Shown here: positions 3,375 to 59,064 of the stretch, piece by piece
Position numbering within the stretch: position 1 is the stretch's first letter
Layout: the number at the start of each line of letters is the position of its first letter
Source: Patescibacteria group bacterium
GTDB lineage: Bacteria > Patescibacteriota > Patescibacteriia > Magasanikbacterales > GWA2-37-8
DNA length: 64,000 bases
NCBI GenBank assembly: GCA_004321885.1
Contig: SCQK01000007.1
Location: 1-64,000 of the forward strand
Direction of reading: 5' to 3'
The notes under the pieces: generated by a model
Databases searched by the model: none
What the model saw: only the letters and a program-made list of their open reading frames with translations
What the model was told of the DNA's origin: nothing
Made by a program: the position numbers and the translations under genes

Positions 3375-5050
3375 TTTCGTATATAATGGCGGTGCTGTCT
3401 AACTTTGCTATGTTTTCCATGATAAAAAAATTTTTAATCAATTTAGCTAAAAATCCTCCGCGAAACGACGAGGAGCTGGAAAGCGCCAAGCGCCTGTTTT
3501 TGCGCGCTGACAAACAGCTTTCCCCTTCCCAAAGGGGGCTTTCCAAAAAAGATTTGCTGGCATTATACCACAAATTGCTGGCCAAAAACAAGGTTAAAAA
3601 AAGCCCGGCGCTGGAGCGCCTACTGACCAAGCGGGCGGTGCGCACCCTGTCGGGCGTGGCCATTATCACGGTGCTTACCAAGCCCTGGGCCTGCCCGGGC
3701 CGATGTGTCTACTGCCCCAGCGAACCAGGCATGCCAAAGAGCTACTTGTCCGATGAACCGGCGGCCGCCCGCGCCAAGATGCTAAAATTTGACCCATACG
3801 AACAAACGCGCCAACGTATTTTGGCCCTGGAAGCCAACGGCCACCCCACCGATAAAATAGAGCTGATCATCAAGGGCGGCAGCTGGAGCGCCTATCCCCT
3901 CGCCTACCAGCACTGGTTTATTTTGCGCTGTTTCCAGGCGGCGAATGGGAGAATCAGGAATAAAAAATCAGGAATAAAAAAAATTGACGCGTTAAAAAAG
4001 ACACTGGCCGAAGAGCAAAGAAAAAACGAGCTATCCAAGCACCGCATCGTCGGCTTGACTTTGGAAACGCGGCCGGATTTTATCACGGAAAAAACCGCGG
4101 CCGAGATGCGCGAGGTGGGATGCACGCGAGTGGAGATGGGAGCGCAAACCACCGACGATAAAATTCTAAAATTGATAAAACGCGGGCATGACGCGCGCCA
4201 AACCAAAACAGCCACGCGGCTTTTGAAAAATCACGGCTTCAAAGTGGACTATCATTTGATGCCCCAACTGCCCGGCTCCACGCCGGCGAAAGATTTGAAA
4301 ATGATGGAAGAAATTTTTAGCGACCCGGATTACCGTCCCGACATGCTAAAAATTTATCCTTGCACGGTGATAGAAAATTCCTTGCTTTATGATTGGCTCA
4401 AAAAAGGAAGGTACAAACCTTATCCCGACAAACAACTGATAGCGACGCTTATAAAATTCAAAACGCGAATCCCCGGCTACGCGCGCGTTTCGCGCTTGAT
4501 TCGAGATATTCCCGGGCACCACGTGAAAGCGGGAAATAAAATGACCAATCTGCGCCAGGTAATTCAGGCGCGGATGCGCGCGGAAGGATTAAAATGCCGC
4601 TGTCTCCGTTGCCGTGAGATTGGCCACAACGAAGAATTAGGAACAAAGAATAAAGAATTAAGGGTTAAATTGTTTATTGACAAATACAAAGCCAGTGGCG
4701 GCACAGAATATTTTTTGAGCTACGAAGACGTAAAAAGAAATGTCGTTTACGCCTTTTGCCGCCTTCGCATTCTCCCTCCCCTTTATAAGGGGAGGGTTAG
4801 GGAGGGGTATCGGGCCTTTATCCGCGAACTGCACACCTACGGCCATTTGGTCGGCATTGGCAAGAACGAAAAAAAAGCCAGCCAGCACACGGGCCTGGGC
4901 AAAAAATTGCTGGCCGAAGCGGAAAAAATTTGCGCGAAAAACAAGGTGCAGAAATTGGCCATCATCGCCGGCGTGGGCGTGCGAAATTATTACCGAAAAC
5001 TCGGGTATCGGCTGGAAAATACCTATATGGTAAAAAAATTGCGTAAATAA
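3359..5050 (+). CDS. elp3: Elp3-like radical SAM / GNAT acetyltransferase (tRNA wobble uridine modification family)
   Basis: 563-aa ORF. Radical SAM cluster motif CPGRCVYCP is present. The C-terminal GNAT region (HTGLGKKLLAEAEKICAKNKVQKLAIIAGVGVRNYYRKLGY) closely matches the eukaryotic/archaeal Elp3 C-terminus. The start is uncertain; alternative Mets lie at 3389 and 3419. Confidence 0.8.
   Translation: MFRSLISYIMAVLSNFAMFSMIKKFLINLAKNPPRNDEELESAKRLFLRADKQLSPSQRGLSKKDLLALYHKLLAKNKVKKSPALERLLTKRAVRTLSGVAIITVLTKPWACPGRCVYCPSEPGMPKSYLSDEPAAARAKMLKFDPYEQTRQRILALEANGHPTDKIELIIKGGSWSAYPLAYQHWFILRCFQAANGRIRNKKSGIKKIDALKKTLAEEQRKNELSKHRIVGLTLETRPDFITEKTAAEMREVGCTRVEMGAQTTDDKILKLIKRGHDARQTKTATRLLKNHGFKVDYHLMPQLPGSTPAKDLKMMEEIFSDPDYRPDMLKIYPCTVIENSLLYDWLKKGRYKPYPDKQLIATLIKFKTRIPGYARVSRLIRDIPGHHVKAGNKMTNLRQVIQARMRAEGLKCRCLRCREIGHNEELGTKNKELRVKLFIDKYKASGGTEYFLSYEDVKRNVVYAFCRLRILPPLYKGRVREGYRAFIRELHTYGHLVGIGKNEKKASQHTGLGKKLLAEAEKICAKNKVQKLAIIAGVGVRNYYRKLGYRLENTYMVKKLRK
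4771..4809. repeat. G-rich palindromic element (family B: CCCTCCCC-TTATAA-GGGGAGGG plus GGGAGGGG), in frame inside elp3
   Basis: Sequence ctccctcccctttataaggggagggttagggaggggta, encoding LPPLYKGRVREG. The same element recurs at 11847, 47016, 50769 and 59027. Confidence 0.7.
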
Positions 5051-5067
5051 TGTTTAGTGATATAATG

Positions 5068-5139
5068 ATATTGTGTTTGAGTGAAAGAAATTTGAACATA
5101 GAGCGAGCGTCGTTGAAATTTCTTTCACTCAAACAATAT
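5068..5139 (+). promoter_or_regulatory. Long near-perfect hairpin (about 26-bp stem) between elp3 and the nudix gene
   Basis: Arms atattgtgtttgagtgaaagaaatttgaac and gttgaaatttctttcactcaaacaatat around a 14-nt loop. No T-run follows the hairpin. Confidence 0.5.
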
Positions 5140-5142
5140 AAC

Positions 5143-5538
5143 AATATGCAACTACCAAACAAATCTATCATCGCCTCGGGGCCGGTGATTATAGAAAACA
5201 ATAAAGTGCTCTTGAACAAAGAAAAAAAAGAAGACGGCGGCGTTTCGCTTTGGATGTTTCCAGGTGGAGAAGTGGAGGATTTTGATGTTTCGCTGGAAGA
5301 AGCGTGCCAACGCGAAGCCAAAGAAGAACTGGGAATTGACGTAGAGATTGTCAAACCGCTTAAACCGATTATGTTAAACAAAGATGGCCGCGTGATTGTT
5401 TTGATACATTATCTCGCTAAACGGATAGGCGAAATCACGCCCGGCCCGCAGACAGCCGAATACGGCTGGCACGACATCAACAACCTGCCTCCCGACTGCG
5501 CGCCAAATGTTTATGAAGTTTTAAAAAATTTAATTTAA
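5143..5538 (+). CDS. NUDIX hydrolase
   Basis: Nudix box [25 protein letters not shown]. The start is taken at MQLPNKS, because the upstream part of the ORF is occupied by the long hairpin. Confidence 0.7.
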
Positions 5539-5588
5539 CCCCACCCTGCCCCTCCCCTAATAGGAGAGGAAAAATTAAGGTAAATACT

Positions 5589-6830
5589 ATGCACACGCAA
5601 GCCCTAAAGGAGTTTGACGGCGATATTTACGCGAGCATCGGACGTGAACTGAAACGTCAGGAAGAAGGATTAGAAATGATTCCTTCGGAAAATTTTGTTT
5701 CTCCGGCCGTGCTGGAAGCGCTCGGCTCAATACTCACCAACAAATACTCCGAGGGGTACGCGGGCAAGCGCTATTACGGCGGCTGTGAGTTTATTGACGA
5801 AGTGGAAACACTGGCCATAGACCGCGCCAAACAGCTATTCGGCGCCGAGCACGTCAATGTCCAGCCACTTTCGGGCGCGCCGGCCAATATCGCCGTCTAT
5901 TTCGCTTTGCTTTCGCCCGGCGACACGGTGCTGGGCATGGACTTGTCTCACGGCGGCCACCTCACCCACGGCCACCCGGTCACCTACATGGCCAAAATTT
6001 TTAACTTCGTGCGCTACAAAACCAATGCCGAGGGCTTGATTGATTTGGATAACTTGCGCCAGATGACCTTGGAACATAAACCAAAAATCATTCTGGTGGG
6101 CTATTCGGCCTATTCGCGCGAAATTGAATACGCGAAGATAAAAGCCATTGCCGATGAAGCGGGCGCCATCACCATGGCCGACATTGCCCATATCGCCGGG
6201 CTTATAGCCGCCGGCGAAATGAGCAACCCGGTGCCGATTTTTGACGTCGTCACCACCACCACGCACAAAACATTGCGCGGTCCGCGCGGCGGCATGATAA
6301 TGTGCAAAGAAAAATTCGCCAAAGCGATTGACAAGTCGGTATTCCCCGGCTTCCAGGGCGGGCCGCACGAAAACAACATCGCGGCCAAGGCCGTGGCATT
6401 TAAGGAAGCGCTGGAGCCGGCTTTCAAGGACTACGCCAAACAAATTAAAGCCAACGCCAAGATTCTGGAAGAAGAATTCAAAAAGCGGGATTATAAATTA
6501 TGTTTCGGCGGCACGGACAATCATCTTTTGCTCATAGACGTGACGCCGAAAAACTTATCCGGCAAAGAAGCCCAAATCGCGCTGGACAAGGCCGGCATTA
6601 CCGTGAACAAAAACATGATTCCCGATGACCCGCGCTCGCCCATGGACCCCTCGGGTATTCGCCTGGGCACGCCGGCCCTCACCACGCGCGGCATGAAAGA
6701 AAACGAAATGCGCCAAATAGCCGCCTGGATTGATGAAGCGATAATGAACTGGCAGGATGAAACAAAACTTGCCGACATTCGCCGGCAAGTCATTGAACTG
6801 ACGAAAAAATTCCCGCTTTATTCTATTTAA
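5589..6830 (+). CDS. glyA: Serine hydroxymethyltransferase
   Basis: 413 aa. The N-terminus matches the GlyA signature [42 protein letters not shown]. Confidence 0.9.
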
Positions 6831-8283
6831 TTTCTCTCACTTCCACCAAGTTGACGTTGCCGGCCTGCCCGACTGGTTCGCCGGCCACCACTATCATGCG
6901 CTCGCCTTTTTTGGCGATTTTATTTTTCTTAATGTAAGCGATGGCTCGCTCAATCAATTCTTCTATGGTGTGGCAAGGCACCAAAACAAACGGCACCACT
7001 CCCCAAGACAAATTTAACTGGCGCCGCACCCGTTCGCCGCCCGTGGCCACCAGTATCGGCAGCTGGGGGCGCACGTGGCTGATCAAACGACCCGTGTCGC
7101 CGGTCAGCGACGCGGCTAAAATAATTTTGGCGTCTACTTCTTCGGCGAGCACGCGCGACAATTCGCTTACCGCCGTATCCACCGAAGCGTTTCTTCTGTA
7201 AATTGCCGGCAAACTGGTGTCGTCGTAGGCCGACTTCTCGGTGGCGCGAATTATTTCCGACATTGTTTCCACGACCAGGGCCGGATGCTTGCCCACCGAG
7301 GTCTCGTTTGACAGCATCAAAGCGTCGGCGTGATCTATCACGGCGTTGGCCACGTCGGAAACCTCGGCGCGGGTGGGCCGACGGCTCTCACGCATGGAAT
7401 CCAGCATCTGGGTCGCCACCATTACCGGCTTGGCTATTTTTCTGGCCGAATCAATAATTCTTTTTTGCGCCAACGGCACTTCGGCGGCCGGAATTTCCAA
7501 ACCCAAATCCCCGCGCGCCACCATCGCGCCGTCGGCCGCTTCCAAAATCTCGGTAATATTCTCCACCCCTTCGTGGCGCTCTATTTTGGCGATTATTCTT
7601 ATTGGCTGTTCGCTCTTTCGGCCAAGCTCCTGCTCATACTGTTTTATCAAAAATTTCACGTCCAGAATATCCCTGGCGTTTTTCACGAAAGAAACCGCCA
7701 GCAGGTCAACCCCCAGCTTGACGGCGAACTTCAAATCGCTCTTGTCTTTCTCGCTTAAAGCAGTTACAGAGAGCGAACTGTCGGGCAAATTCAAACCTTT
7801 ATTGGAGGTAATGATTCCGCCCTCCACCACCTGGCCCGCGATTCTAGTGCCCTTCACTTCGGTTATCTTAATCTCAACGCGGCCGTCGTCTATCAAAATA
7901 CGCTCCCCGCTCTGCACGTATTTATGCAAATCGGCGAAATCAATCGGTAATTCTCCAGGACCGCTTTTATCTCCGCAGGTATTTAAGGAAACCGTCTGTC
8001 TTTCGCGCAAGGTCACTCCCTCTTTGGGCAAAACGCCCAGCCGAATTTTAGGCCCCTGCAAGTCGCCCATGATGGCCAGGGGCTCGCCGGTGGCTGCCTC
8101 GGCCCGGCGCAGATTATTGAATAATTTTTCGTGCTCTTCGTGGGTGCCATGGGAAAAATTAAGACGCGCCACGTTCATGCCCGCTCTTATCATTTTGACC
8201 TGGACCTTGACGTCGGCGCAGGCCGGCCCGATGGTGGCGCAAATTTTGGTTTTTTTCAGCATAGAACCACTAATCTTATTCAC
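6823..8283 (-). CDS. pyk: Pyruvate kinase
   Basis: 486 aa with N-terminal [34 protein letters not shown]. The ORF begins at a GTG; the ATG for MLKKTKI at about 8262 is an alternative start. Confidence 0.85.
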
Positions 8284-8311
8284 TAATCACACTAACTGAC
8301 GAACGATTGGC
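8270..8311 (-). promoter_or_regulatory. About 40-bp 5' motif with three ATTAGTG heptamers, shared with the gene starting at 13782
   Basis: catagaaccactaatcttattcactaatcacactaact here matches catagaaccactaattttatccactaatcgcactaatt at 13750-13791 at 38 of 42 positions. It spans the start codons and encodes (V)NKISGSM and (V)DKISGSM. Confidence 0.5.
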
Positions 8312-10578: not shown

Positions 10579-11838
10579 TCAAGGGATTAAAGTCTTTATC
10601 CACTTCTTCAATTTGCCGCCGGCACGTCCCATTGTCTTGTCCAAAAATGAAACTCCGCCGCTATGCTCGCCGGCCGCTTGCGCGCCCCATTTCACCATGC
10701 CGATGGCCGTGGCAAATCCCAGGTCGTTTACTTTATCAGTGACGCTCATCAGCCCGAGCGGATAGCCCAGGGCCGAGGGCAGGCGCAAGACCCGCTTGGA
10801 AAATTCCACCAAGCCGGCGAGCTTGGCGCCGGCGCCGGAAAAAATCACCCCGGCCGGCAACAGGCCCGAGCGCTGTACCTGACGCAGCTGCTCGTCCACC
10901 TTCTGCAAAATTTCTTCCATTCTGGCCGCCACGATTTCGCATAAATATTTTCTCTTCACGATTTCGTGCTTTTCCGAACCCAAATCAAACAAATCTATTT
11001 CTTCTTTTTTGGCCAGCGGCTCCAGCACGCATTCGCCGTATTCAATCTTTATCCGCTCGGCGATATCCACGGAGGTGCGCAAACCAATGGCAATATCATT
11101 GGTAATGTTGCCCGAACCCAGCGGCACCGAGGCCGTGTGCAAAAGCTCGCCTTCCTCAAACACGGCCAGACTGGTGGACGCTCCGCCGATGTTGACCACG
11201 GCCGTGCCCAATTCTTTTTGCCGCCGCGTGGCCGCGGCCTCGGCCACGGCCAAAATAGATAGGGCCAGGTCGTCTATCTCCAGGCCTGCCCGATAGACCG
11301 ATTTGGTGAGATTTTTTAATTGCGAAGAAGAACCCAGCACAATGCTGGTATCCACTTCCAGCCGCACGCCGGTCATGCCCACCGGGTCTTTGAGCGCGAG
11401 CTGGCCGTCCACGCCAAAACTGCGCGGCAAAACATGCAAAACCTCGTAATTAAGCGGCGTGGCGATGGATTTGGCCGCGTCCAGGGCTCTTTGCACGTCT
11501 TCTTCGGCGATTTCGCTGTTGGCTTTGGAGACAGCCACCACTCCCTTGCTCGGCTGAACCAGCACGTGTTGCGACGGCACGCCCACCCACACGCTGACAA
11601 TGGGCATGCCCACCATCCGCTCGCATCTTTCCAGGCAAGCTGAAATGGAAGACACCGCGTCTTCAATGCTTTCTATTTTTCCCTTATTCACTCCCTCGGA
11701 GCCGTATTCAGCCGCTCCTAAAATCTGCAGTTCTTTTTCACCGTCTTCTTTTTCCACCACTTGTCCCACGGCCATCCGCACCGCCGAAGAGCCTATGTCA
11801 AGACCGCCGATTAAATGGCTGTTTCTGTGTTTAGACAT
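10579..11838 (-). CDS. ftsA: Cell division protein FtsA
   Basis: 419 aa with an actin-like ATPase N-terminus LIGGLDIGSSAVRMAVGQV. It sits immediately upstream of ftsZ. Confidence 0.9.
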   Translation of the reverse strand: MSKHRNSHLIGGLDIGSSAVRMAVGQVVEKEDGEKELQILGAAEYGSEGVNKGKIESIEDAVSSISACLERCERMVGMPIVSVWVGVPSQHVLVQPSKGVVAVSKANSEIAEEDVQRALDAAKSIATPLNYEVLHVLPRSFGVDGQLALKDPVGMTGVRLEVDTSIVLGSSSQLKNLTKSVYRAGLEIDDLALSILAVAEAAATRRQKELGTAVVNIGGASTSLAVFEEGELLHTASVPLGSGNITNDIAIGLRTSVDIAERIKIEYGECVLEPLAKKEEIDLFDLGSEKHEIVKRKYLCEIVAARMEEILQKVDEQLRQVQRSGLLPAGVIFSGAGAKLAGLVEFSKRVLRLPSALGYPLGLMSVTDKVNDLGFATAIGMVKWGAQAAGEHSGGVSFLDKTMGRAGGKLKKWIKTLIP

Positions 11839-11846
11839 ATAATTTA

Positions 11847-11894
11847 CCCCTACCTTCCCTCCCCCTTAAAAAGGGGGGGGACAGGAGGGGGTAG
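11847..11894. repeat. G-rich palindromic element (family B) upstream of ftsA
   Basis: Sequence cccctaccttccctcccccttaaaaaggggggggacaggagggggtag. Confidence 0.65.
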
Positions 11895-11910: not shown

Positions 11911-12273
11911 TTATCTCACTAAATTTATAAAGTGCGGAATAAAAATCATCAGCCCGATGACGGCCGCGAAAAGCGCCGTAAGCAAAACCGCGCCGGCTGT
12001 CGCATCTTTTATGTCGCGCACGTAATGATGCAAGCGCGGCTTGAGCAAATCATTAAAATACTCCAGGGCCGTATTTAAAATTTCCATCACCAACACCATC
12101 AATATCAAAAGCAGAATCAGGATACGCTCCCAGCGCGCCAGCGGAAAAATAATAGACAACGCGAAAACTATAACACCGGCCGCTGTTTGCGCGCGAAAAT
12201 TATATTGCGACCTAAAAACAAATTTTAATCCGCGGCCCGCGGCCGCGATGCTTTTTGTGAGACGCTTAAACAT
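11911..12273 (-). CDS. dgkA: Diacylglycerol kinase / undecaprenol kinase
   Basis: 120-aa polytopic membrane protein. VLVMEILNTALE matches the E. coli DgkA sequence VMIVEILNSAIE. Confidence 0.7.
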   Translation of the reverse strand: MFKRLTKSIAAAGRGLKFVFRSQYNFRAQTAAGVIVFALSIIFPLARWERILILLLILMVLVMEILNTALEYFNDLLKPRLHHYVRDIKDATAGAVLLTALFAAVIGLMIFIPHFINLVR

Positions 12274-13782: not shown

Positions 13783-13791
13783 TAATTGGCG
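13750..13791 (-). promoter_or_regulatory. Second copy of the ATTAGTG-triplet 5' motif
   Basis: The sequence cited at 8270 recurs here, spanning the start of the CDS at 13782. Confidence 0.5.
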
Positions 13792-14669: not shown

Positions 14670-14678
14670 AAATATTTT

Positions 14679-14760
14679 GTCATTGCGAGCGACCGGAGGG
14701 AGCGAAGCAATCCCATCCCTATCCAGGGGATTGCTTCGTCGCTTCGCTCCTCGCAATGAC
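14679..14760. repeat. Long palindromic element gtcattgcgag...ctcgcaatgac (about 35-bp arms)
   Basis: gtcattgcgagcgaccggagggagcgaagcaatccc forms one arm and gggattgcttcgtcgcttcgctcctcgcaatgac the other. It is related to 25805-25894 and 45765-45834. Confidence 0.7.
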
Positions 14761-14762
14761 GA

Positions 14763-46064: not shown

Positions 46065-46122
46065 ATCTTTCTAACAAAACCGGCCGCCTGAGGCGACCGG
46101 TCTAAATGTCTATTGCTTCAGC

Positions 46123-46922: not shown

Positions 46923-46934
46923 AAATAAAGATAT

Positions 46935-46963
46935 GGATTCCGGCTCTGCGGCCGGAATGACAG
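46935..46963. repeat. Family A element ggattccggctctgcggccggaatgacag upstream of rpsP
   Basis: Its core is similar to the core of the copy in nrnA (51115). Confidence 0.65.
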
Positions 46964-47015
46964 ACGGAATTTGAGAGCGTGACTATCTTATTACAAAGCC
47001 GCTTGTTTGTCAACT

Positions 47016-47064
47016 TACCCCTCCCTTACCCTCCCCTTATCAAGGGGAGGGGGCGGGAGGGGTA
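47016..47064. repeat. G-rich palindromic element (family B) overlapping the smc stop codon
   Basis: Sequence tacccctcccttaccctccccttatcaaggggagggggcgggaggggta. It encodes the smc C-terminal residues PPAPSP. Confidence 0.7.
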
Positions 47065-50150: not shown

Positions 50151-50176
50151 AACGCGTTTTATTATACCATAAATGC

Positions 50177-50205
50177 TTGCTGATAAAAAGGTCTTGTGAT
50201 ATAAT
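50177..50205 (+). promoter_or_regulatory. Promoter TTGCTG-17-TATAAT with a TGTG extended -10
   Basis: Sequence ttgctgataaaaaggtcttgtgatataat, upstream of the small gene at 50298. Confidence 0.5.
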
Positions 50206-50297
50206 ATAAACAATGTTTTGCCATACAAAACACTATATCTCTAACTTAATTTTATATGAGAGGTCGTGAATCCGACGGTTTGCCAGGAGAAGAAACA

Positions 50298-50660
50298 ATG
50301 ATAACCAAAAAAGGTGATGACAAAAAGAATCCTTGGAAAAAACCACTAATCGCGGCGGGGATAGCGGCGGCAGGAGCAGCAGGAGCAATTGGCGGAGCGG
50401 AACTACATCGACATAGAGTAGATGCTGCCCATCAGCAAGGATTTCAGGAAGGAATTAAAGCAGGAATAAAACAAGAAAGGGAAGTAGTCGAAAAATCCAA
50501 GCAAGAGGCGGATTTGAAAGCGCTGAAAGAAGCTAACGTTGAAGTACCCTCTACGCGGCCAACTCAAGAAGCCGCCCTTAAAGTTCCTAAAAAAATCAAA
50601 CCCCGCCGCGCAACACCGCGGCCTGATGATGGATACGGTCCCCGCAAGGGTGGCTTGTAA
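50298..50660 (+). CDS. Hypothetical small membrane protein
   Basis: Start taken at MITKKG. A Gly/Ala-rich transmembrane segment is followed by a charged helical tail. Confidence 0.5.
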   Translation: MITKKGDDKKNPWKKPLIAAGIAAAGAAGAIGGAELHRHRVDAAHQQGFQEGIKAGIKQEREVVEKSKQEADLKALKEANVEVPSTRPTQEAALKVPKKIKPRRATPRPDDGYGPRKGGL

Positions 50661-50670
50661 ACAATCGTTC

Positions 50671-50707
50671 AAAAGACAGCCACAAGCAACTGTGGCTGTC
50701 TTTTATT
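50671..50707 (+). terminator. Rho-independent terminator
   Basis: Perfect hairpin gacagccacaagcaactgtggctgtc followed by ttttatt. Confidence 0.7.
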
Positions 50708-50720
50708 AACTAAATCACCC

Positions 50721-50749
50721 TTGACATCCCGCGCCAAGCGTAATATAAT
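50721..50749 (+). promoter_or_regulatory. Consensus sigma70 promoter TTGACA-17-TATAAT upstream of nrnA
   Basis: Sequence ttgacatcccgcgccaagcgtaatataat. Confidence 0.65.
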
Positions 50750-50768
50750 GAAAAATTCTGATTGACTT

Positions 50769-50804
50769 TACCCCCTCTTAATCTCCCCCTTATCAAGGGG
50801 GAGA
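50769..50804. repeat. Family B-like palindrome tctccccc-ttatcaa-gggggaga in the nrnA 5' UTR
   Basis: Sequence taccccctcttaatctcccccttatcaagggggaga. Confidence 0.6.
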
Positions 50805-50817
50805 CAAACGACAAACT

Positions 50818-51807
50818 ATGCAGGCGAAATTTCAAGAACTAAACAATCTACTCCTTAAAGCTGAAAACATAGTTATCGCCATTCACCAAAATCCGGACGG
50901 CGATGCTTTGGGTTCGGCCGCGGCCCTGGCCGAGTATCTCTCTGACAAAGGAAAAAATTTCTCCATATATTGCGCCACCGCGCACCCGGAAAATTTCAAA
51001 TTTTTATCCCACGTCAATGCCATTACCGCGGAGGCCGCGGTTTTAAGCTTGGCTAATTTAATCGTGGTAATGGACTCAGGCGATTTGCGCTACGCCGGTC
51101 TGGATTCCCGCGATGGATTCCGGCTCCTGGGCCGGAATGACAGAAAGGGAGGGGGGAATGACAATCCAAAAATCATTAACATTGACCACCACATCAGCAA
51201 CGAGCAATTCGGATTTTTGAATATCACGGACAGCCAGGCCTCGGCCACGGCGCAGATAGTTTATGATTTTTTTCGCAGTGAGCGCGTGGCGATTTCACCG
51301 GCCATGGCCACGGCGCTACTCACCGGCCTGGTTTGCGATACGGACAACTTTACCAACGGCGGCACCACGCCCGCGTCTCTGGAAGCCGCCGGCCACCTCT
51401 TGCGCTCGGGGGCCAATCTGCCGCTGGTGCACAGATGGGTGATAAAAAATTCCTCGCTCAATCTGCTCAAACTCTGGGGCATTGTGCTGGAGCGGCTGGA
51501 AAAAATTGAGGAAAAAAATCTGGCCTACACCTATATCACCAACGAAGATTACTTGCGCTATGGCATCACCGAGCTAGGGGCCGAAGGCATTGCCAATTTG
51601 CTGAACAAGCTGGGCGGGGTGCAAATCTCCCTGCTTATCCGCGAAACCATGGACGGCAAAATCAAAGGCAGTTTTAGAACCACCTCGGACAATACCGACG
51701 TTTCGGCGCTGGCCAAAAAACTGGGCGGCGGCGGGCATGCCAAGGCGGCCGGTTTTACGACTGAAGGCACCATAGAAGACGTGCTCAACAAAATTTTGAC
51801 GATGTGA
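50818..51807 (+). CDS. nrnA: DHH-family phosphoesterase (NrnA-like nanoRNase / pAp phosphatase)
   Basis: IAIHQNPDGDALGS (DHH motif I), IDHH, GGGH and a DHHA1 C-terminus are present. It carries an in-frame palindromic-element insertion. Confidence 0.8.
   Translation: MQAKFQELNNLLLKAENIVIAIHQNPDGDALGSAAALAEYLSDKGKNFSIYCATAHPENFKFLSHVNAITAEAAVLSLANLIVVMDSGDLRYAGLDSRDGFRLLGRNDRKGGGNDNPKIINIDHHISNEQFGFLNITDSQASATAQIVYDFFRSERVAISPAMATALLTGLVCDTDNFTNGGTTPASLEAAGHLLRSGANLPLVHRWVIKNSSLNLLKLWGIVLERLEKIEEKNLAYTYITNEDYLRYGITELGAEGIANLLNKLGGVQISLLIRETMDGKIKGSFRTTSDNTDVSALAKKLGGGGHAKAAGFTTEGTIEDVLNKILTM
51115..51143. repeat. Family A element ggattccggctcctgggccggaatgacag, in frame inside nrnA
   Basis: It encodes GFRLLGRND. 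It is followed by a partial second unit, aaagggaggggggaatgacaatcc. Confidence 0.7.
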
Positions 51808-51833
51808 TAAAAATCTGCTAAACTAAACTAACG

Positions 51834-51863
51834 GATTCCCCCGACTAAGTCGGGAGAATGACA
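51834..51863. repeat. Family A element ggattcccccgactaagtcgggagaatgac between nrnA and clpP
   Basis: It ends 6 bp before the clpP ATG. Confidence 0.7.
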
Positions 51864-51868
51864 ATTAT

Positions 51869-52459
51869 ATGGAACCAAAATCCCAATATCTTATCCCCAC
51901 GGTCATAGAAAAAACCCACTACGGCGAGCGGGCCTACGACATCTATTCGCGGCTCTTGCAAGACCGCATTGTTTTTTTGGGCACGCCCATAGACGACGGC
52001 GTGGCCAACACGGTCATTGCCCAGCTCTTGTTTTTGGACAATCAAAGCCCGGAAAAAGACATCAAGCTCTATATCAATTCCCCGGGCGGCTCGGTGACCG
52101 CCGGCATGGCCATCTACGATACGATTCGCTATATCAAAGCCGAGGTTTCCACCATTTGCATTGGCCTGGCCGCCAGCATGGCCTCGGTGATTTTGGCCGC
52201 CGGCGACAAAGGCAAGCGCTTTGCCCTGCCCAACGCCGAAATTATGATGCACCAGGTAATGGGCGGCATGGAAGGCCAGGCCAGCGACATCAAAATCCGT
52301 TCCGAGCGCATTTTGCGCATCAAGGACCGGCTAAACCAAATTTTGGCCAGCCACACCGGCAAAACCATACAGCAAATTGAAAAAGATACGGACCGCGACT
52401 ACTTTATGACGGCCCAAGAGGCCTTAAACTACGGCTTGATTGATAAGGTGATTGAATAG
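51869..52459 (+). CDS. clpP: ATP-dependent Clp protease proteolytic subunit
   Basis: Ser-His-Asp triad context [17 protein letters not shown], with a [12 protein letters not shown] stretch. Confidence 0.95.
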
Positions 52460-52512
52460 AAACGAATTTTTAGCTAAAATTAGCAAAATTTAAGCATTTC
52501 TGCCCTGCCCCC

Positions 52513-52541
52513 TTGACAAAAATAGCCATTTGTGCTATACT
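52513..52541 (+). promoter_or_regulatory. Near-consensus promoter TTGACA-17-TATACT with a TGTG extended -10
   Basis: ttgacaaaaatagccatttgtgctatact drives the terminator-bounded locus that has no conventional gene. Confidence 0.65.
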
Positions 52542-52547
52542 GTTTTG

Positions 52548-52815
52548 TTACGTACAATGAAAAGGCGGGTATATGAATTGCCCCGCCAACACAGTCGGAC
52601 ACGGATTTATGCATGCTATCCAGTTGTTCCAGACCCATATAGTATGTATCAACCCGTATCCACGACAAGCATGGAGGTGTGTTAGAGGGTGGCACTGGCG
52701 CAAGCTCGTCTGCTTCTTTAACACATCTTCTTGGATGCGGTTTCTAAGGGGGGGTTTCACTCCCCCAAAAACTATTAAAACCCCGTTGCCTTAATTGGCA
52801 ACGGGGTTTGTTTTC
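52548..52815 (+). ncRNA. Candidate small RNA of about 265 nt (identity unknown), or an mRNA for a 73-aa Cys/His-containing small protein
   Basis: It is bounded by a strong promoter and a bidirectional terminator. It contains imperfect long-range complementarity and a gggggggtttcactccccc hairpin. The ORF at 52573..52794 (MNCPANTVGHGFMHAIQ...) has a weak SD. Its 5' region is paralogous to the leader at 36308. Confidence 0.35.
52777..52814. terminator. Bidirectional rho-independent terminator
   Basis: aaaaccccgttgccttaattggcaacggggtttgtttt serves both the plus-strand locus and the convergent VanW-like gene. Confidence 0.7.
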
Positions 52816-52820
52816 GCGCA

Positions 52821-54773
52821 CTATGGCTCCACAGCCCCGACTAAGTCGGGGACTATGGAGCCAGCGGCTGTCGTTCCATCAATCGTACTGGTGGCTCCGC
52901 CAGCCGGCGGATCCGGCCCCACCATGCAAATCTGGGGCAAGGGCCGGTAATAGCTGTCAAACACCCGCTCAATCTGTTCCGAAGACGAGGTGACGCGCGT
53001 GTAAGTAAAACTGGCCACTGCCCCGCGGAACGCGTTCTGGCATTTTTTCTCGCCTGGTTTCAGCTTGTCGCTCTCAACTGTTTGCGGCTCGCCGGCCGGA
53101 ATCCACTTGCTTACCTTGGGGTGGTCATACCAGCCCTTGCGCCCGTCGCTCTTGCCCCACAAAGTAAAAACCAGACGCTGTTTCACATAGTCAATTTCGG
53201 TTTGCAAAAGCAGGTAGCCACCCGTGTCGTTTAAGAACCGAAAATCAATATCCGGCTCGTAAAGCGTGGCGTCCGTGCCCGGATTGCCGTTGACCGGGTC
53301 CGCGTAATAACCCACCACCAGGGAATGGTTGCGCCTTTGCGTTATCGGCATGCCCGAGTTCATGGCCATTCTAAAAAGCGTGGTGCCTATTTGGCACATG
53401 CCGCCGCCGATTTCGTTTTTTATTTCTTTGCCTTTTATCACGGCCTCGGGCAAAAAACCGACCGCGGCCGTGAACGGCCCGGCGAATTTAATGGCGGAAA
53501 ATTCTTCGCCGGGCGCGATGATAACCCCGTTTAGCCGCCGCACTGCCAAGGCGATATTTTTTATCCGGTTGGTGTGGCTGTCGCGAAAAGTGGAGACGCC
53601 GGCGCCGAGCCTGTCGGTGATGCCCAAATTGTTGGCGTCGGAAACTTTTATATCCGGCTCCATGATACTGACCGATAATGTCAGGGTCTGGGCCCGGCCT
53701 GCCCCTTCGTAATTGCGGGCGCGGAAAATAGCGTCAAGTTCGGCGTAGGTTTTTTCCATATCCAGACTGACGCCCGACTGACTGGCCTGAAATTCTTTCA
53801 CTTTGCCGTCCTCCATCAAAAATTTTGCGTTTTTGGCGGCCACATCCACCGCGGGCTTCACAAAATTCTCCAAATAGGCAAAAACCCTTTCTTTATTCAA
53901 GGCAAACACAAACTCATTGTCAGCCGCGCGCGTTTCCAGCCAATCGGCGTAAACGTTGTTTTTTATGTTCCAATCGCGCCGCTCCTTGGTGCGCGAATCA
54001 ATATAGTTCAAATTCAAATCTCCGGCTGTCAAAACCGCCGGTAATTTTGCCAGTATGGATTCCACGTCCGCTTTATTCACCGAGGGAGAAAAACCGCTTT
54101 GTTTTATTTCAATCGGCGCCAGGGTCAGAGCGGCCATTTTTTGCTCCATTTCCGCGCGCGCTTTGGCTATTTCAAAAATGGCGCCTTTTTTGGCCGGAAC
54201 AATTTCATAGGCGAGCGGCGACAGACTCGTAACTTTCACGTTGGCGTCGCGCGGATTTTCGGCCGCCGGGGCCAAATCGCTTTTAAGCTGTTCAACTAAT
54301 TTATTATCCGTCTGAATTTGCGCCTGAATTTTTTCCTTAAAAATCAAAAAAGAAGGCGGCAATAAAAGGTCTTTCCACCACGGCCCGCCCCGCCCGGCGC
54401 CGAACGCCAAGGCGGCGGTTTCGGCGCTTTTGACGCTGGCCAGCTCCACCGAAGAATCGCCGGCCGGCACCGCGTCTATTTTTAAATCAATTTTCTCGCC
54501 GCTTTTGGGATGATAATAAAAAAAATCAATGCCGTCTTTGGCGATTTTGTCGTTGTAAATTTCCAAAAATTCTGTCGCCTTTTCCGCGCTTAGGCCGCCC
54601 AAGTGATATTGGCCGATGTAAACGCCCGGATAAACTTTATTTTTATAAATCTGCTGATAGGCAAAAGCCGAGGCAACCGCAAAGAGCGCCAAACCAACCA
54701 GCGCAATGAGTGCGAACAGCGCGCTTTTGAGCATGGAATTTTTCTTTTCTGCGGGAGGATTTTTTTCAACCAT
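52821..54773 (-). CDS. VanW-family protein with an N-terminal membrane anchor
   Basis: 650 aa. The C-terminal VanW-like region reads MPITQRRNHSLVVGYYADPVNGNPGTDATLYEPDIDFRF. The last 15 aa are encoded by a family A palindromic element. Confidence 0.65.
   Translation of the reverse strand: MVEKNPPAEKKNSMLKSALFALIALVGLALFAVASAFAYQQIYKNKVYPGVYIGQYHLGGLSAEKATEFLEIYNDKIAKDGIDFFYYHPKSGEKIDLKIDAVPAGDSSVELASVKSAETAALAFGAGRGGPWWKDLLLPPSFLIFKEKIQAQIQTDNKLVEQLKSDLAPAAENPRDANVKVTSLSPLAYEIVPAKKGAIFEIAKARAEMEQKMAALTLAPIEIKQSGFSPSVNKADVESILAKLPAVLTAGDLNLNYIDSRTKERRDWNIKNNVYADWLETRAADNEFVFALNKERVFAYLENFVKPAVDVAAKNAKFLMEDGKVKEFQASQSGVSLDMEKTYAELDAIFRARNYEGAGRAQTLTLSVSIMEPDIKVSDANNLGITDRLGAGVSTFRDSHTNRIKNIALAVRRLNGVIIAPGEEFSAIKFAGPFTAAVGFLPEAVIKGKEIKNEIGGGMCQIGTTLFRMAMNSGMPITQRRNHSLVVGYYADPVNGNPGTDATLYEPDIDFRFLNDTGGYLLLQTEIDYVKQRLVFTLWGKSDGRKGWYDHPKVSKWIPAGEPQTVESDKLKPGEKKCQNAFRGAVASFTYTRVTSSSEQIERVFDSYYRPLPQICMVGPDPPAGGATSTIDGTTAAGSIVPDLVGAVEP
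52830..52868. repeat. Family A element ggctccacagccccgactaagtcggggactatggagcc, in frame at the C-terminus of the VanW-like protein
   Basis: Identical to 14187-14226. It encodes GSIVPDLVGAVEP in both proteins. Confidence 0.75.
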
Positions 54774-54774
54774 A

Positions 54775-55206
54775 CTATTCCCCTATCACCAAAATAGGGA
54801 TTTCGCGCTTGGCGCCGGCCTTGGGCAGGCGCACTGTCAAAACGCCGTTTTTGTATTCGGCTTTGGTCAGTTCCGCCTTCACGTCCACTGGCAAAACAAT
54901 GGTGCGCGAAAATTTTCCCCAATAGCACTCGCGGCAAAAATGCTCGGAACCGGCCGGAGACGGGTCGCGCCGCCAGCCGCGTATAGTAAGCAAATCATTG
55001 TGCAAATGCAACTCTATGTCGCCCGGCTCGGTGCCGGCCATGGTCGCTATTATTACCAGCTCGTCGTCTGTTTGCGCCACGTCCAAGACCAACTGGCCCT
55101 CGCTGTCCTGCTCTTCCCAGGCGCCGCTGTCTGGCGGACGCAAAAGAGAAAGGATGGACAGGTCGTCACCCTCGGCGCTAATCGGCAATTGTTTTTTTTC
55201 AAACAT
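54775..55206 (-). CDS. Hsp20 / alpha-crystallin family small heat-shock protein
   Basis: IELHLHNDLLTIRGWR...AEYKNGVLTVRLPKA. Start taken at MFEKKQ; the ORF extends to 55251. Confidence 0.8.
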   Translation of the reverse strand: MFEKKQLPISAEGDDLSILSLLRPPDSGAWEEQDSEGQLVLDVAQTDDELVIIATMAGTEPGDIELHLHNDLLTIRGWRRDPSPAGSEHFCRECYWGKFSRTIVLPVDVKAELTKAEYKNGVLTVRLPKAGAKREIPILVIGE

Positions 55207-55207
55207 A

Positions 55208-56107
55208 TTATTTTTGGCAGTTTCCACAAAAACTCGTTCCCCGGCCCGCAATTTTCCTTTTTTGAATTATACCCTTTTTGCACCGCAGGCACTTCATGCC
55301 CTGGCGGCCGTAGACTTTAAGAAACTCGGTAAACTTGCCTTTTTGCCCGCGCGCGTTCGCGTAATTCCTGAATGTCGTGCCACCGTATTTAAGGGCCTGG
55401 CGCAAAACCGATTTTATCGCCCTAAACAGCGCGGCCTTTTCTTTTTCCGTCAAACTCGCCGCCGGCCTTCCTGGCAAAACACCGGCGCTAAAACATATCT
55501 CATCGGCGTAAATGTTTCCGATGCCGGCGATAAGCGCCTGGTCCAAAAGCGCGGCTTTGAGCAGGGATTTTTCCCGGCCGGCCAGAATCCTCTTAAATTC
55601 CGCTAAATTAAACTTTTTTGAAAACGGCTCAATTCCGTAGGCGCGCTCAACTTTATTTTTCTCGGCTTCACCCGCCAAGCGCAAATAGCCGAAACGTCTC
55701 ATGTCATTAAAATACAACTTGGAGTCGTCGGAAAACACAAACGCGGCGCGCGTGTAAGCCGTTGGCAAAGTGTCCGGATTAATTACCGGCAAATTATGCC
55801 CGCCCCCACACCAAAATTTTTGGTGTGGGGGCCCGCCGGCTACTACTTTCTTCCCTGCCGCGTAGATTAGCTGTCCAGTCATTTTCAAGTGAACCAGCAA
55901 ATATTTTTTGGCCGACAGGCTAAATACCAACAGCTTTCCCAGCCGCTCTATTCTTACAAATTTTTTCCCTTTAATTTCAGAAACAAACTTTTCCGCATTT
56001 CCTTTTACCGGACTTTTTTTTGCAATCTCAATCTGCACGATTTTCTTGTTCAAAATACTCTTTTCCAGACCCTTGCGTATTGTTTCCACTTCGGGCAGTT
56101 CGGGCAT
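55208..56107 (-). CDS. mutM: Formamidopyrimidine-DNA glycosylase
   Basis: N-terminus MPELPEVETIRKGL and a C-terminal zinc finger CLRCKKG...CGNCQ. It carries an in-frame palindrome insertion. Confidence 0.9.
   Translation of the reverse strand: MPELPEVETIRKGLEKSILNKKIVQIEIAKKSPVKGNAEKFVSEIKGKKFVRIERLGKLLVFSLSAKKYLLVHLKMTGQLIYAAGKKVVAGGPPHQKFWCGGGHNLPVINPDTLPTAYTRAAFVFSDDSKLYFNDMRRFGYLRLAGEAEKNKVERAYGIEPFSKKFNLAEFKRILAGREKSLLKAALLDQALIAGIGNIYADEICFSAGVLPGRPAASLTEKEKAALFRAIKSVLRQALKYGGTTFRNYANARGQKGKFTEFLKVYGRQGMKCLRCKKGIIQKRKIAGRGTSFCGNCQK
55803..55831. repeat. Perfect 14-bp-arm palindrome cccccacaccaaaa-t-ttttggtgtggggg, in frame inside mutM
   Basis: It encodes GGPPHQKFWCGGG. Confidence 0.65.
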
Positions 56108-56187
56108 ATTTTTTCTGACTATAAGTTTGGCGAGCAAACTCATGTATTCCCGATAACTATATAATATCAAATATTGTTTCTGCCGTA

Positions 56188-56227
56188 AAGAAAAACTGGT
56201 CGCCTGCGGCGACCAGTTTTTCTTTTA
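56188..56227 (-). terminator. Rho-independent terminator (GGTCGCC-N3-GGCGACC hairpin family)
   Basis: aaaaactggtcgcctgcggcgaccagtttttc. Similar hairpins occur at 46082-46104 and 46468-46490. Confidence 0.65.
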
Positions 56228-56229
56228 GT

Positions 56230-58917
56230 TTACCAATCTTTCACCAGATAACTCCTCCACACGCTGGACTTGGCTTTGCTCGTCGTAATCACGCTTTGAA
56301 ACAGCGCCAACTGCGACGCAGGCCGGCGGAAGAAACTGGCCACGCGATAAGCGCGCAGTACCTGCTCCTCCACGGCCGGCACGTCAAACTTTTTCAAATT
56401 CGCCTTGTTCAAACCGCTGCGGAGCTGCTTTTCCAAATCCGATGGCACGCTTATCTTGAGCGAATCTTCTATCTGCTCCTGCAGGTTCGCGGCCGCGTCC
56501 CAATTATCCATCACATCGCTCGCGTTCATTTCGTCAAGCCTCACCTTGGCCGCTTCCCTTAAATTTTCAGTCCGGTCTTTCAAATCCTCAAGCAGGGCTT
56601 TCAGCTCGCTGACGTCTTTTTTGCTCTTGGCCAGGCGGTTAATTCTCGCCTCATAGCGCTTGATGGCGGCCGCCAATTTATTCACCGAAGCCTTCAAACT
56701 GGTCATGCCGCGCAAGCCGGACATAGACGCGTCGGCCTCTTGCAGCTTGTCAATAATCTGCTCCTGCACAAAATCAAACGGCTCTTGCTCCAGATAGTCG
56801 TTGGTTTTTAATTTGTCATAGGCCGTGCGCGCCTCGGCGATTTTATCGCCGATGACTTTAAGCTGGGCCTCGGCGTCCACGTTTAATTTTTCCATCAAAA
56901 CAACCACGCGCTTGTATTCTTTCTCGCGCCGCGCGATATTTTGCGTAATCATCGGGGCCACTTTCAGCAAACGGCTAAGCTGTTCCAGCCGCACCAGCCA
57001 TTCGTTCAGGCCGTCAAAAATATCAGCCAATGCTTCGCCGGCATCGCGCGCCTCTTCAAAGGTTTTGGCTTCTTTTATCTGCTCCACCAATTTCTGGCCG
57101 CTGTCCAGCAATTCTTTCAAAGATTGCGGCAGGCTGTAGCCGCGCTTTTCCAAGAGTGTGGCGCGATTTTTAAGCGATATGAATTGCCGCGACACCTCGG
57201 CCATCTTGCGCTTCAATTGCTTCAAGGCCTTCTCCTGCATTTCTCTGTCGCGCTCGGACATGTCGGTGTCGTTGTTGGAAATCAGCTCGTTCTTCAGGTC
57301 GCGCAAAATCTGCACATCGTCGCTAATCGCTTCCAAAGTGTCAAAGGCCGTCATATCCAGGGGCGTATTCTGTATTTTTTCGCGCAAGCCCGTGATTTTA
57401 TCCATGGACGCGGAGTCGCTCAATTTTTTGAACGTGCCCCACAAGGAATCCAATGTTCTGTTTAATGATTTCTTCTTTTGCTCTATGGTTTTAATTTGAT
57501 GCTCGGTTAATAGTTCTTTTACCTCAACCACAGTCTTGCACACGCCCGAAGACGAGCAATAGCCCGTACTGCCCTCGGTTTTATCCAGACACCAGGTGCC
57601 GCCCTTGGCCGCGCAAACCGCGATGGGGTCTTCGGTTTTTACCGGGCAGGCCGTGCCTTCGGTTACCTTTGAGCCATCGGAACAAATAATATAGGTAACG
57701 GGCTTGGGACAGACAGCCGTGCTTTCCACCGAAGAACCATCCGGACAAGTCTTGTAAGTGATGACCGGAATGATTTGAAGACTCGCGGTCGGACAGGCGG
57801 ATAATTTAGTTACCGCAGTGAAGTTATCCGGACAGATCATTTGGCCCGTTGGCGCGGCTTTCATGCAAACACTGCCGGCGCTCATGCACCAGCCGCTCAT
57901 GGCCGTACTACTATAGGTACCGGTAAATTCGCACCAAGTGGCGCCCTTGGCCTTGCAGTCCGTGGAATTAGACGGCGTCATCGGGCAAGCCCCCCAGCTA
58001 TCGGCAAAGCTGTTGTCCCAGCAGGTAACTTTGCCGCTGGGCGCGGCAGGCGCGCAAGTACTACCTTTTGGATTGCAGTAGCCGCCTGAACTCATGGAAC
58101 CGGAATAATTTGATTTGCACCAAACCCCCTGAAATTTTGTACAGTCAGATTCATTGCTGGGCCAGGTCATTGTTTCGTAATTCGTGGGGCATTTGGACCA
58201 GTCTGTCACTTTGGTAACTCCATCGGAACAAGTCATGGTAGTTGCCGGGCATTTAGAGCTGTCGGTTACCTTGGTGCCGTCGGAGCAAGTATAACTGTTG
58301 TCCGGACAAGAACTGCCCGCGGTTTGACACCAGCCCCCGCCATAAGAACTTGTACACCAACTTCGGCCCTTGGCCGTGCAGGTGGCCTGGTCATAAATAG
58401 GACAGGTGGTATTGTTTGTGGCGCACCAGCCAGTGCCGCCGCTGGTGCTCGCGCACCACTCCCCGTTTTGAGCCTTGCAGGACGCTTCATCATTGGCCGG
58501 ACAATTTTCGCCGGTATTCGCGCACCAGCCCGAACCGCCGTAAGAGCTCGTGCACCATTTTCTGCTTTTAGCCACGCAGGTCGCTTCGTCGTTTATCGGG
58601 CACCCATAGCCGCCGGTGGAACACCAGCCGCCCGTGGCCCCGCCGCTGTACGTGCACCATTCGCCGCTTTGGGCCGTGCACGAAGCCGCGTCATAAGCCG
58701 GGCACGGACTGGTGGAATATGAACACCAGCCAGTAACGCCGTCGGAATTCTTGCACCATTTACCATTGCCCGTGGTACAGGTGGTTTCCGGGCTCGTGGT
58801 GGTACCGCTGTTTGTGGAGGTGTCGGTTTGGGCCAAAACTACCCCGACCAAAAAAAGCGCTGACAAAATAAAACTTAGCGATATTAAAAAAAATCGCTTC
58901 CTGATGCCATTGTGCAT
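56230..58917 (-). CDS. Secreted protein (895 aa) with N-terminal Cys-rich tandem repeats and a long C-terminal coiled coil
   Basis: Signal peptide, then a roughly 36-aa repeat about six times (C.A..G.WC..S.GG.GWC...G..CP..D.A.C), then CSDGTKVTDxSKCP repeats, then about 450 aa of heptad-rich sequence. Confidence 0.7.
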   Translation of the reverse strand: MHNGIRKRFFLISLSFILSALFLVGVVLAQTDTSTNSGTTTSPETTCTTGNGKWCKNSDGVTGWCSYSTSPCPAYDAASCTAQSGEWCTYSGGATGGWCSTGGYGCPINDEATCVAKSRKWCTSSYGGSGWCANTGENCPANDEASCKAQNGEWCASTSGGTGWCATNNTTCPIYDQATCTAKGRSWCTSSYGGGWCQTAGSSCPDNSYTCSDGTKVTDSSKCPATTMTCSDGVTKVTDWSKCPTNYETMTWPSNESDCTKFQGVWCKSNYSGSMSSGGYCNPKGSTCAPAAPSGKVTCWDNSFADSWGACPMTPSNSTDCKAKGATWCEFTGTYSSTAMSGWCMSAGSVCMKAAPTGQMICPDNFTAVTKLSACPTASLQIIPVITYKTCPDGSSVESTAVCPKPVTYIICSDGSKVTEGTACPVKTEDPIAVCAAKGGTWCLDKTEGSTGYCSSSGVCKTVVEVKELLTEHQIKTIEQKKKSLNRTLDSLWGTFKKLSDSASMDKITGLREKIQNTPLDMTAFDTLEAISDDVQILRDLKNELISNNDTDMSERDREMQEKALKQLKRKMAEVSRQFISLKNRATLLEKRGYSLPQSLKELLDSGQKLVEQIKEAKTFEEARDAGEALADIFDGLNEWLVRLEQLSRLLKVAPMITQNIARREKEYKRVVVLMEKLNVDAEAQLKVIGDKIAEARTAYDKLKTNDYLEQEPFDFVQEQIIDKLQEADASMSGLRGMTSLKASVNKLAAAIKRYEARINRLAKSKKDVSELKALLEDLKDRTENLREAAKVRLDEMNASDVMDNWDAAANLQEQIEDSLKISVPSDLEKQLRSGLNKANLKKFDVPAVEEQVLRAYRVASFFRRPASQLALFQSVITTSKAKSSVWRSYLVKDW

Positions 58918-59026
58918 ATTTCAATAAGTTAAATAAATACGCGTTCGCGAAAAGCGAACGGATATATTATACCACACTTTCCCGCGGCCTGCATGCAGGG
59001 TCGGATGACCCTGTGGATAAGTTTTA

Positions 59027-59064
59027 TCCCTCCCCTTGATAAGGGGAGGGTTGGGGAGGGGTAA
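59027..59064. repeat. G-rich palindromic element (family B) immediately 3' of ahcY
   Basis: Sequence tatccctccccttgataaggggagggttggggaggggta. Confidence 0.7.

Follow-up and report, generated by a model that had tools for sequence, protein, structure and literature searches.

The 64-kb window analysed here (contig SCQK01000007.1, positions 1 to 64,000) is part of a Patescibacteria metagenome-assembled genome (MAG) and carries a family of short, G-rich palindromic repeats at six loci, two of which are palindromic doubles (11845-11893 and 47016-47064) and four of which are singles. Genes take up roughly 91% of the window, yet spacers or their edges hold five of the six loci (calculated binomial probability ~3e-5); the sixth lies inside elp3. 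Repeats of a related kind are known from Escherichia coli, where what had been called the BoxC repeat was described anew as the PIT element (Hoyne et al. 2000 and Hoyne & Maher 2002, as cited in Holder et al. 2015, PMC4666352) and later as TMECO (Holder et al. 2015, NAR 43:10126, PMC4666352). We consider it likely that the window family belongs to this BoxC/PIT/intrastrand triplex motif class and that its units are selfish or neutral, structure-prone repeats; they are not intrinsic terminators.

The unit at 4774-4809 is in frame in elp3 (ILPPLYKGRVREGY) and encodes the peptide PPLYKGRVREGY in a length-variable loop, as an earlier first-pass annotation of the same sequence had proposed. The copy at 5538-5569 overlaps the NUDIX stop codon, with the glyA ATG (5589) 19 nt downstream, and the dgkA-ftsA spacer is mostly filled by 11845-11893. 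The smc stop codon is overlapped by 47016-47064, so that SMC ends in ...TPPAPSP*, seven residues of which are unit-encoded; the same double abuts a -35-like TTGACA (47013-47008, minus strand) upstream of rpsP. The unit at 50769 is directly preceded by a perfect sigma-70 consensus, TTGACA-17-TATAAT (50721-50749), and followed by the nrnA ATG (50818); further upstream of the sigma-70 site is a perfect 14-bp bidirectional terminator-like hairpin (50671-50704). The last unit, 59028-59063, comes to within 1 nt of the ahcY stop codon and lies 110 nt upstream of the start (58917) of the next minus-strand open reading frame (ORF). The location mostly at gene boundaries that was noted in the first pass is thus confirmed.

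A three-block unit at six loci

Each unit is a 36-nt module with the layout Y10-N3-R10-N3-H10, composed of a 10-nt pyrimidine block CCCTCCCCTT, 3 nt, the purine complement AAGGGGAGGG, 3 nt, and a 10-nt G-rich block GGGAGGGGTA. This last block mirrors the purine block, each A of which may face either A or T. The copies had previously been described as palindromes with a ttataa or ttatcaa loop and, often, a duplicated GGGAGGGG. The true loop is 3 nt, the flanking TT/AA being part of the stem, and the supposed duplicate is the purine arm in mirror image, the trait that defines an intrastrand triplex motif (TM). The 10-nt blocks take in both the TT/AA beside the loop and a conserved TA after the last G run, which is explained as two more triads on AA:TT pairs.

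Units were located with a three-block finder that calls for a pyrimidine block, a loop of 3-7 nt, the Watson-Crick complement of the first block, a loop of 1-6 nt, and a third block antiparallel to the purine block, in which G stands opposite G and A or T opposite A (G*G:C and A/T*A:T triads). The finder matches every locus in the window and returned 0 sites in 100 Markov shuffles. At five loci the blocks are 10 nt and both loops 3 nt long, and 5538-5569 has 8-nt blocks; mismatches to the Hoogsteen rule number 0 in five units and 1 in the remaining units. With relaxed settings the one further unit was 11845-11880 on the minus strand (0.07 matches per shuffle). The pattern CCTCCCCN7GGGGAGG, allowing up to 2 mismatches, gave 4 matches in the window against 0.16 expected, and none of 100 shuffles reached 4, so the dispersed repeat family reported in the first pass is real. 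All five copies listed there were found where they had been placed, and repeat finding joined them into one family together with a degenerate sixth member at ~5536-5569 (families D5 and D8) that had gone unlisted. The arms that the copies were said to share do follow a common layout, but they are not uniform, since 50769 has the variant arms TCTCCCCC/GGGGGAGA and the purine arm at 11858 is GGGGGGGG. At 50769 all three blocks are altered and 10 of 10 triads are kept, which amounts to a three-way compensatory change.

At six of six loci, as in a class II triplex motif, a 5' pyrimidine block is joined to a complementary purine block through a first loop of 3-6 nt, and a second short loop and an antiparallel 3' block with G*G:C and A/T*A:T pairing follow. 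The units are dispersed, multi-copy and over-represented relative to scrambled sequence, with six loci in 64 kb against none in the shuffles. Judged by sequence, the window family fits the architectural definition of a class II intrastrand triplex motif and not the strict TMECO consensus; its blocks read CCCTCCCC(TT)/GGGGAGGG/GGGAGGGG. Coordinates of the units and of the adjoining genes are given in Table 1.

Table 1. Repeat units in the 64-kb window and the genes that adjoin them
Feature	Position	Strand	Basis or remark
Single module, CCCTCCCCTT-TAT-AAGGGGAGGG-TTA-GGGAGGGGTA	4774..4809	+	Finder 10/3/10/3/10, no mismatches
Degenerate module with 8-nt blocks, minus-strand reading CCTCTCCT-ATT-AGGGGAGG-GGCAG-GGTGGGGT	5538..5569	-	Repeat finding and finder
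Imperfect palindromic double	11845..11893 (+ 11858-11893, - 11845-11880)	both	Finder and relaxed search
Perfect palindromic double	47016..47064 (+ 47029-47064, - 47016-47051)	both	Repeat finding and finder
Single module with variant blocks, minus-strand reading TCTCCCCCTT-GAT-AAGGGGGAGA-TTA-AGAGGGGGTA	50769..50804	-	Finder, no mismatches
Single module, CCCTCCCCTT-GAT-AAGGGGAGGG-TTG-GGGAGGGGTA	59028..59063	+	Finder; 93% identical to 4770 copy
elp3	3359-5050	+	Pfam scan
NUDIX	5050-5538	+	Pfam scan; stop codon 5536-5538
glyA	5589-6830	+	Pfam scan
ftsA	10579-11838	-	Pfam scan
dgkA	11911-12273	-	Pfam scan
rpsP	46554-46922	-	Pfam scan
smc	47040-50228	-	Pfam scan; stop codon 47040-47042
nrnA-like DHH protein	50818-51807	+	Pfam scan
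ahcY	59065-60423	-	Pfam scan

Predicted folding and signals at gene boundaries

RNA fold prediction against shuffles put the minimum free energy between -17 and -42 kcal/mol (z as low as -5.8) at five of the six loci, among them 47016-47064 (-42.1 kcal/mol, z -5.8) and 11845-11893 (-35.6 kcal/mol, z -3.8). The hairpin potential suggested in the first pass therefore holds for these five, whereas the degenerate 5538 copy (-9.6 kcal/mol, z -0.8) folds no better than shuffled sequence. Rfam returned no family match at the copies at the gathering score, and a relaxed threshold yielded only sub-threshold microRNA-hairpin noise.

The copies could be factor-independent terminators, as the first pass had proposed, or 3'-end hairpins that stabilise mRNA, recycled across the genome. 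In favour of this are the stability of the hairpins and the position of four loci 0-17 nt from the stop codon of the upstream gene; the E. coli elements likewise lie in 3' untranslated regions and between operons (Kaplan et al., PMC5100583). When the flanks are read directly, no T/U tract follows any copy on either strand, and a terminator-consensus scan of 44000-62000 left all three copies in that interval (47016, 50769 and 59028) unflagged. Placement also speaks against termination, as 50769 stands in a 5' leader, 5538 and 11845 stand just before start codons, and 4774 is inside elp3; in E. coli, moreover, PIT/BoxC elements have neither terminator nor promoter activity (PMC4666352). Because there is no T/U tract, the scan flagged none of the three copies it covered and copies occur before starts and within an ORF, we reject the intrinsic terminator; the proposal as a whole, of which mRNA stabilisation is the less firmly disfavoured part, appears very improbable. 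For annotation this means that terminator labels do not belong on these sites and that the unusual peptides in Elp3 and SMC are to be regarded as repeat-derived.

The purine arm and the third block could instead act together through a G-quadruplex (G4). The canonical motif (four runs of at least 3 G with loops of 1-7 nt, (G3+N1-7)x4) is present at 4774, 47016/47029, 59028 and 5538, so that the G4 potential claimed earlier stands for four of the six loci and fails at 50769 and 11858. Under such a scheme the four G tracts (GGGG-A-GGG-TTA-GGG-A-GGGG) would compete with the C-arm hairpin as a regulatory switch at gene boundaries, much as the same E. coli sequences have been described as a G4-hairpin-duplex switch on circular dichroism (CD) evidence (Kaplan et al. 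2016, PMC5100583), and an archaeal analogue turns to G4 after annealing in K+ (PMC8044849). The copies at 50769 (GGGGGAGATTAAGAGGGGG) and 11858, however, keep the triad rule and lack four G3 tracts; the mirrored interruption and the terminal TA are conserved, neither of which a G4 needs; and nuclear magnetic resonance (NMR) of the E. coli element favoured a triplex rather than a G4 (PMC4666352). We regard the switch as quite improbable.

The copies at 47016 and 50769 adjoin promoter-like sites and the core is strongly conserved across phyla, as might be expected of putative binding sites at which a sequence-specific nucleoid or regulatory protein would recognise the palindrome. There is no known candidate for the protein, the conserved third block is asymmetric and would be needless in a palindromic operator, one copy is within a coding region, and the neighbouring genes are functionally unrelated, as they also are in E. 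coli (PMC4666352). Such binding sites would seem extremely unlikely.

Occurrence in other genomes and inside genes

One genome per GTDB species was scanned for the exact pattern CCCTCCCCTTNNNAAGGGGAGGG, which has 20 specified bases, and at least 120 loci were obtained where, by our own estimate, fewer than 1 would be expected by chance in 596 Gb. Among the matches listed are Nostoc, Microcoleus, Pseudanabaena and Chamaesiphon, as well as Cellvibrio and Alphaproteobacteria, Bacteroidota, Melioribacteraceae, Turneriella, Nitrospinota, Chthonomonadaceae and Patescibacteria. Although the pattern left the flanks free, the flank TTAGGGTGGGGTA on one side, or its complement on the other, occurs in 113 of the 127 copies listed, and both outer arms occur in 3. 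It follows that the one-armed form is the unit and not a decayed long palindrome; a simple long palindrome, whose outer arm would be the remnant of a full hairpin, was rejected because a single, highly conserved outer arm is the rule in these copies from many phyla. In 978 kb of related loci the finder located 234 units with a modal geometry of 10/3/3, and in ~1 Mb of loci four stem classes (4,3; 2,4; 5,2; 5-AA-2) have a third block whose interruption stands in mirror position to the one in the purine arm. The window sequence 4773-4809 is identical to a Desmonostoc copy at 37 of 37 nt.

The core is found on plasmids of Nostoc, Dolichospermum, Pseudanabaena, Photobacterium, Aeromonas, Pelobacter and Sphingobium. 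A scan of IMG/VR gave 6 matching stretches only, which makes viruses no obvious vehicle. Tail-to-tail pairs of units occur in several MAGs, and in Nostocales and Microcoleus the unit is part of longer composite repeats that have inverted ends of their own. In four Nostocales loci and others it is paired with a CCCCCC-loop-GGGGGG hairpin in a longer repeat bounded by GTGTACACACAAGT inverted ends, and in four Microcoleus loci it lies within TATAGCAATCCTAAAT inverted ends; the two hairpins of such composites often have matching loops.

Presence of the unit varies between relatives. Aligned Elp3 homologs have a loop of variable length between CRLR and FIRELHTYG, and the closest relative (81% amino-acid and 82% nucleotide identity) is ~30 nt shorter at the unit site and has no insert. 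Since 36 nt is exactly 12 codons, the reading frame is kept, and that of elp3 stays intact after removal of the unit. In a related groundwater member of the Patescibacteria the unit is missing from elp3 and from the NUDIX-SHMT spacer, but an EamA transporter has an in-frame pair, joined tail to tail, in its central loop (locus L122, 4146-4224). An in-frame pair also lies inside the B5 domain of PheT in a gammaproteobacterial MAG (locus L076, 207-295), where 90 residues cover a 67-position profile, and Turneriella has an in-frame unit in the linker of MacB (locus L119, 1799-1836). These comparisons, with the in-frame copies and the unit-encoded SMC end, show that presence differs between relatives and that permissive protein regions tolerate the unit. 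No target-site duplication was seen in the comparison of filled and empty Elp3 sites, which is blurred by divergence, and the differences between homologous Nostoc loci are heptamer tandem repeats and not the unit, so that these loci offer no clean pair of empty and filled sites. Two Elp3 proteins of other Patescibacteria have long inserts in the same loop, including ...RDSSVTSLPQNDN..., a peptide that looks like the product of yet another palindromic repeat family; the Elp3 loop seems to be a recurrent landing site.

Variable presence between close relatives, inverted doublets that resemble REPINs, a GGGGTAG end on some copies (including window 11893), and a core that is found on plasmids of several phyla and inside different frames resembling miniature inverted-repeat transposable elements (MITEs) in cyanobacteria could all point to a non-autonomous element like a repetitive extragenic palindrome (REP), REPIN or MITE. 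It would be mobilised in trans by a RAYT or by an IS200/IS605-type single-strand transposase that recognises a hairpin and a flanking guide. With REP/REPIN systems and their RAYTs (PMC3116915, PMC3733652) the family shares short G/C-rich extragenic palindromes, singlets and inverted doublets, and variable copy number. REPs, in contrast, have no mirrored third block, and their conserved 5' GTAG/CGTC tag is missing from the window copies: only 11893 reads GGGGGTAG, and there it is 3' of the structure and not 5' as in REPs (PMC3733652), while the other five end in GGGGTAT or GGGGTAA. No transposase, RAYT or Y1 domain was found by Pfam scan among the ~55 ORFs of the window, in which the sole mobile-element proteins are LAGLIDADG endonucleases in rRNA introns. 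The lack of a visible target-site duplication in Elp3 and the few IMG/VR matches also count against mobilisation, and no link of TMECO to transposons, phages or plasmids was reported by Holder et al. 2015 (PMC4666352). The REP/RAYT form of the proposal was rejected for want of a conserved tag and of a transposase in the window, and we hold a trans-mobilised element of this general sort to be rather doubtful.

Another, unlikely, account is that the 36-nt unit is itself a self-contained, horizontally spreading element that passes between phyla and is inserted in a structure-specific manner, either triplex- or hairpin-guided or by an unknown enzyme. Its near-identity in Patescibacteria, Cyanobacteria, Proteobacteria, Bacteroidota, Spirochaetota and on plasmids would then be the mark of active transfer between phyla. 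Were this so, it could enter essential genes (elp3, pheT, macB, eamA and the smc 3' end) as a 'PPLxKGRxxxG' cassette, and would be a much smaller counterpart of the in-frame palindromic elements of Rickettsia.

Under the triplex-motif reading that we prefer, the first two blocks pair as a hairpin on a transiently single DNA strand, a step that both the sequence and fold prediction show. The third block would then lie antiparallel in the major groove and form the G*G:C and A/T*A:T triads; this step is suggested by the exact triad rule and by in-vitro studies published for the analogues from E. coli and archaea. Units of this kind may be quickly gained and lost, and would survive only where they are tolerated, in short spacers, at gene ends and in permissive protein loops. 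Several points weigh against this interpretation. In E. coli no triplex footprint was found in vivo, and DNA that is double-stranded remains a duplex (Holder et al. 2015, PMC4666352), and purine-motif triplexes do not form in RNA (PMC4666352). The stems read CCCTCCCCTT and not CCCTCNCCC, as the strict TMECO consensus would have it. The blocks are of low complexity, so that mirror symmetry and a shifted direct repeat differ at one or two positions only, and as many copies are also related by descent, the covariation rests on few independent stem classes. A model of 'neutral junk' does not account for the near-identity across phyla, and the evidence from the source genome comes from 64 kb. Any potential for discovery lies only in that cross-phylum identity and in the mirrored third block.

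Other palindromic families are also present in the window. The gene trmD (45369-46064, minus strand) holds an in-frame 72-nt palindrome (45764-45835) of a different family (TGTCATTGCGAGG...CCTCGCAATGACA), which encodes LSLRGLKGRSKPMGLPRRSAPRND at a site where the Pfam match has ~23 extra residues. A GGATTCCGGCTC..GGCCGGAATGACAGA unit is in frame in the DHH domain of nrnA (~51100-51160; peptide DSRDGFRLLGRNDRKGGGND), where it is followed by a GGGAGGGGGG fragment, and recurs in the rpsP-smc spacer (46933-46964). A third small family, TGTCATTCCCCCGACTAAGTCGGGGGAATCC, lies at gene boundaries (29738-29769, 32637-32668 and 51830-51861), and its copy at 51835-51859 was flagged as terminator-like on the minus strand.

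Elsewhere, a 16S rRNA match on the minus strand (40528-44098 region) extends over 2861 nt for a 1533-position model, and the gene therefore carries insertions, one of which holds a LAGLIDADG_2 ORF (42336-43097). The 3' end of the match (41238-41297) is shared with a group I intron (40528-41297), which runs beyond the match and holds a LAGLIDADG_3 ORF (40552-41223). Ribosomal RNA genes with such insertions are typical of the candidate phyla radiation. A single ORF of 3541 residues (15171-25796, minus strand), together with neighbouring ORFs that match bacterial TSP3 repeats (13782-15158) and T4SS-pilin and Big_5 (25896-27926), resembles a cell-surface gene cluster. A 43-nt direct repeat, 88% identical between 8260-8302 and 13750-13792, spans the starts of pyruvate kinase (6823-8283) and of the ORF 12685-13782, both on the minus strand, and may be a shared leader or N-terminus. 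A 120-nt segment is present three times at 77% identity (35160-35279, 37786-37905 and 40051-40170) at the 3' ends of ORFs with a PEP-utilizers mobile domain; these are paralogous gene ends, the third copy being in a spacer.

Relation to known repeat classes

The BoxC/PIT/TM kind of repeat is already described, from E. coli and cyanobacteria. What is new is the Patescibacteria host, the CCCTCCCCTT 10-triad variant that is nearly unchanged across phyla, and the in-frame coding copies; a literature search with exact sequence strings retrieved no bacterial description. Small in-frame repeats are reportedly known from the Rickettsia palindromic elements (RPE) of Ogata et al. (2000), which are said to be ~100-150 bp long and to lie at permissive sites of conserved protein genes with the ORF kept; they are unrelated in sequence to the window unit and are not known to have a triplex architecture.

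The putative quadruplex sequence and C-tract repeats of the archaeal Methanomicrobiaceae, in which hairpin, antiparallel triplex and G4 interconvert in experiments, have the same three block types (GGGGTGGGG, GGGGAGGGG and CCCCTCCCC) and are intergenic near gene ends (PMC8044849). They differ from the window family in their archaeal hosts and in their order, which is reversed, with the third block 5' and the C block 3' (class I as against class II). TMs rich in G/C occur very often in cyanobacteria (Holder et al. 2015, PMC4666352), and the exact CCCTCCCCTTNNNAAGGGGAGGG core with TTAGGGTGGGGTA after it abounds among the matches listed from Nostoc, Microcoleus, Pseudanabaena and Chamaesiphon. 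The cyanobacterial unit is usually within composite repeats with terminal inverted repeats, whereas the window unit stands alone.

The closest comparison is with TMECO, which has the consensus 5'-CCCTCNCCC N3-6 GGGNGAGGG N3 GGGNGAGGG-3' and CCCTCTCCCTTGAGGGAGAGGGTTAGGGTGAGGGT as a typical copy, forms a class II purine-motif intrastrand triplex in vitro by CD and NMR, and has been linked to local sequence instability (PMC4666352). Both families have the same order of a C-rich block, a loop, a complementary G-rich block, a 3-nt loop and a mirrored G-rich block, often with TTA as the second loop and with T or A opposite A. Both consist of multiple dispersed copies of ~34-37 nt that are mostly intergenic near gene ends, occur as singles and inverted pairs (the latter checked at the hrpB-mrcB spacer of MG1655), and vary in presence among related genomes. 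They differ in that the window unit, CCCTCCCCTT/AAGGGGAGGG/GGGAGGGGTA, has 10 triads and mostly carries A, not T, in the third block, whereas TMECO, CCCTCNCCC/GGGNGAGGG/GGGNGAGGG, has 9. TMECO has been reported as always intergenic, whereas in the window 4774-4809 is inside elp3 and 47016-47064 overlaps the smc 3' end. The unit is thus tolerated in frame in conserved proteins, contrary to the strictly intergenic picture from E. coli, and the BoxC/PIT/TM class would be extended to a genome of the candidate phyla radiation.

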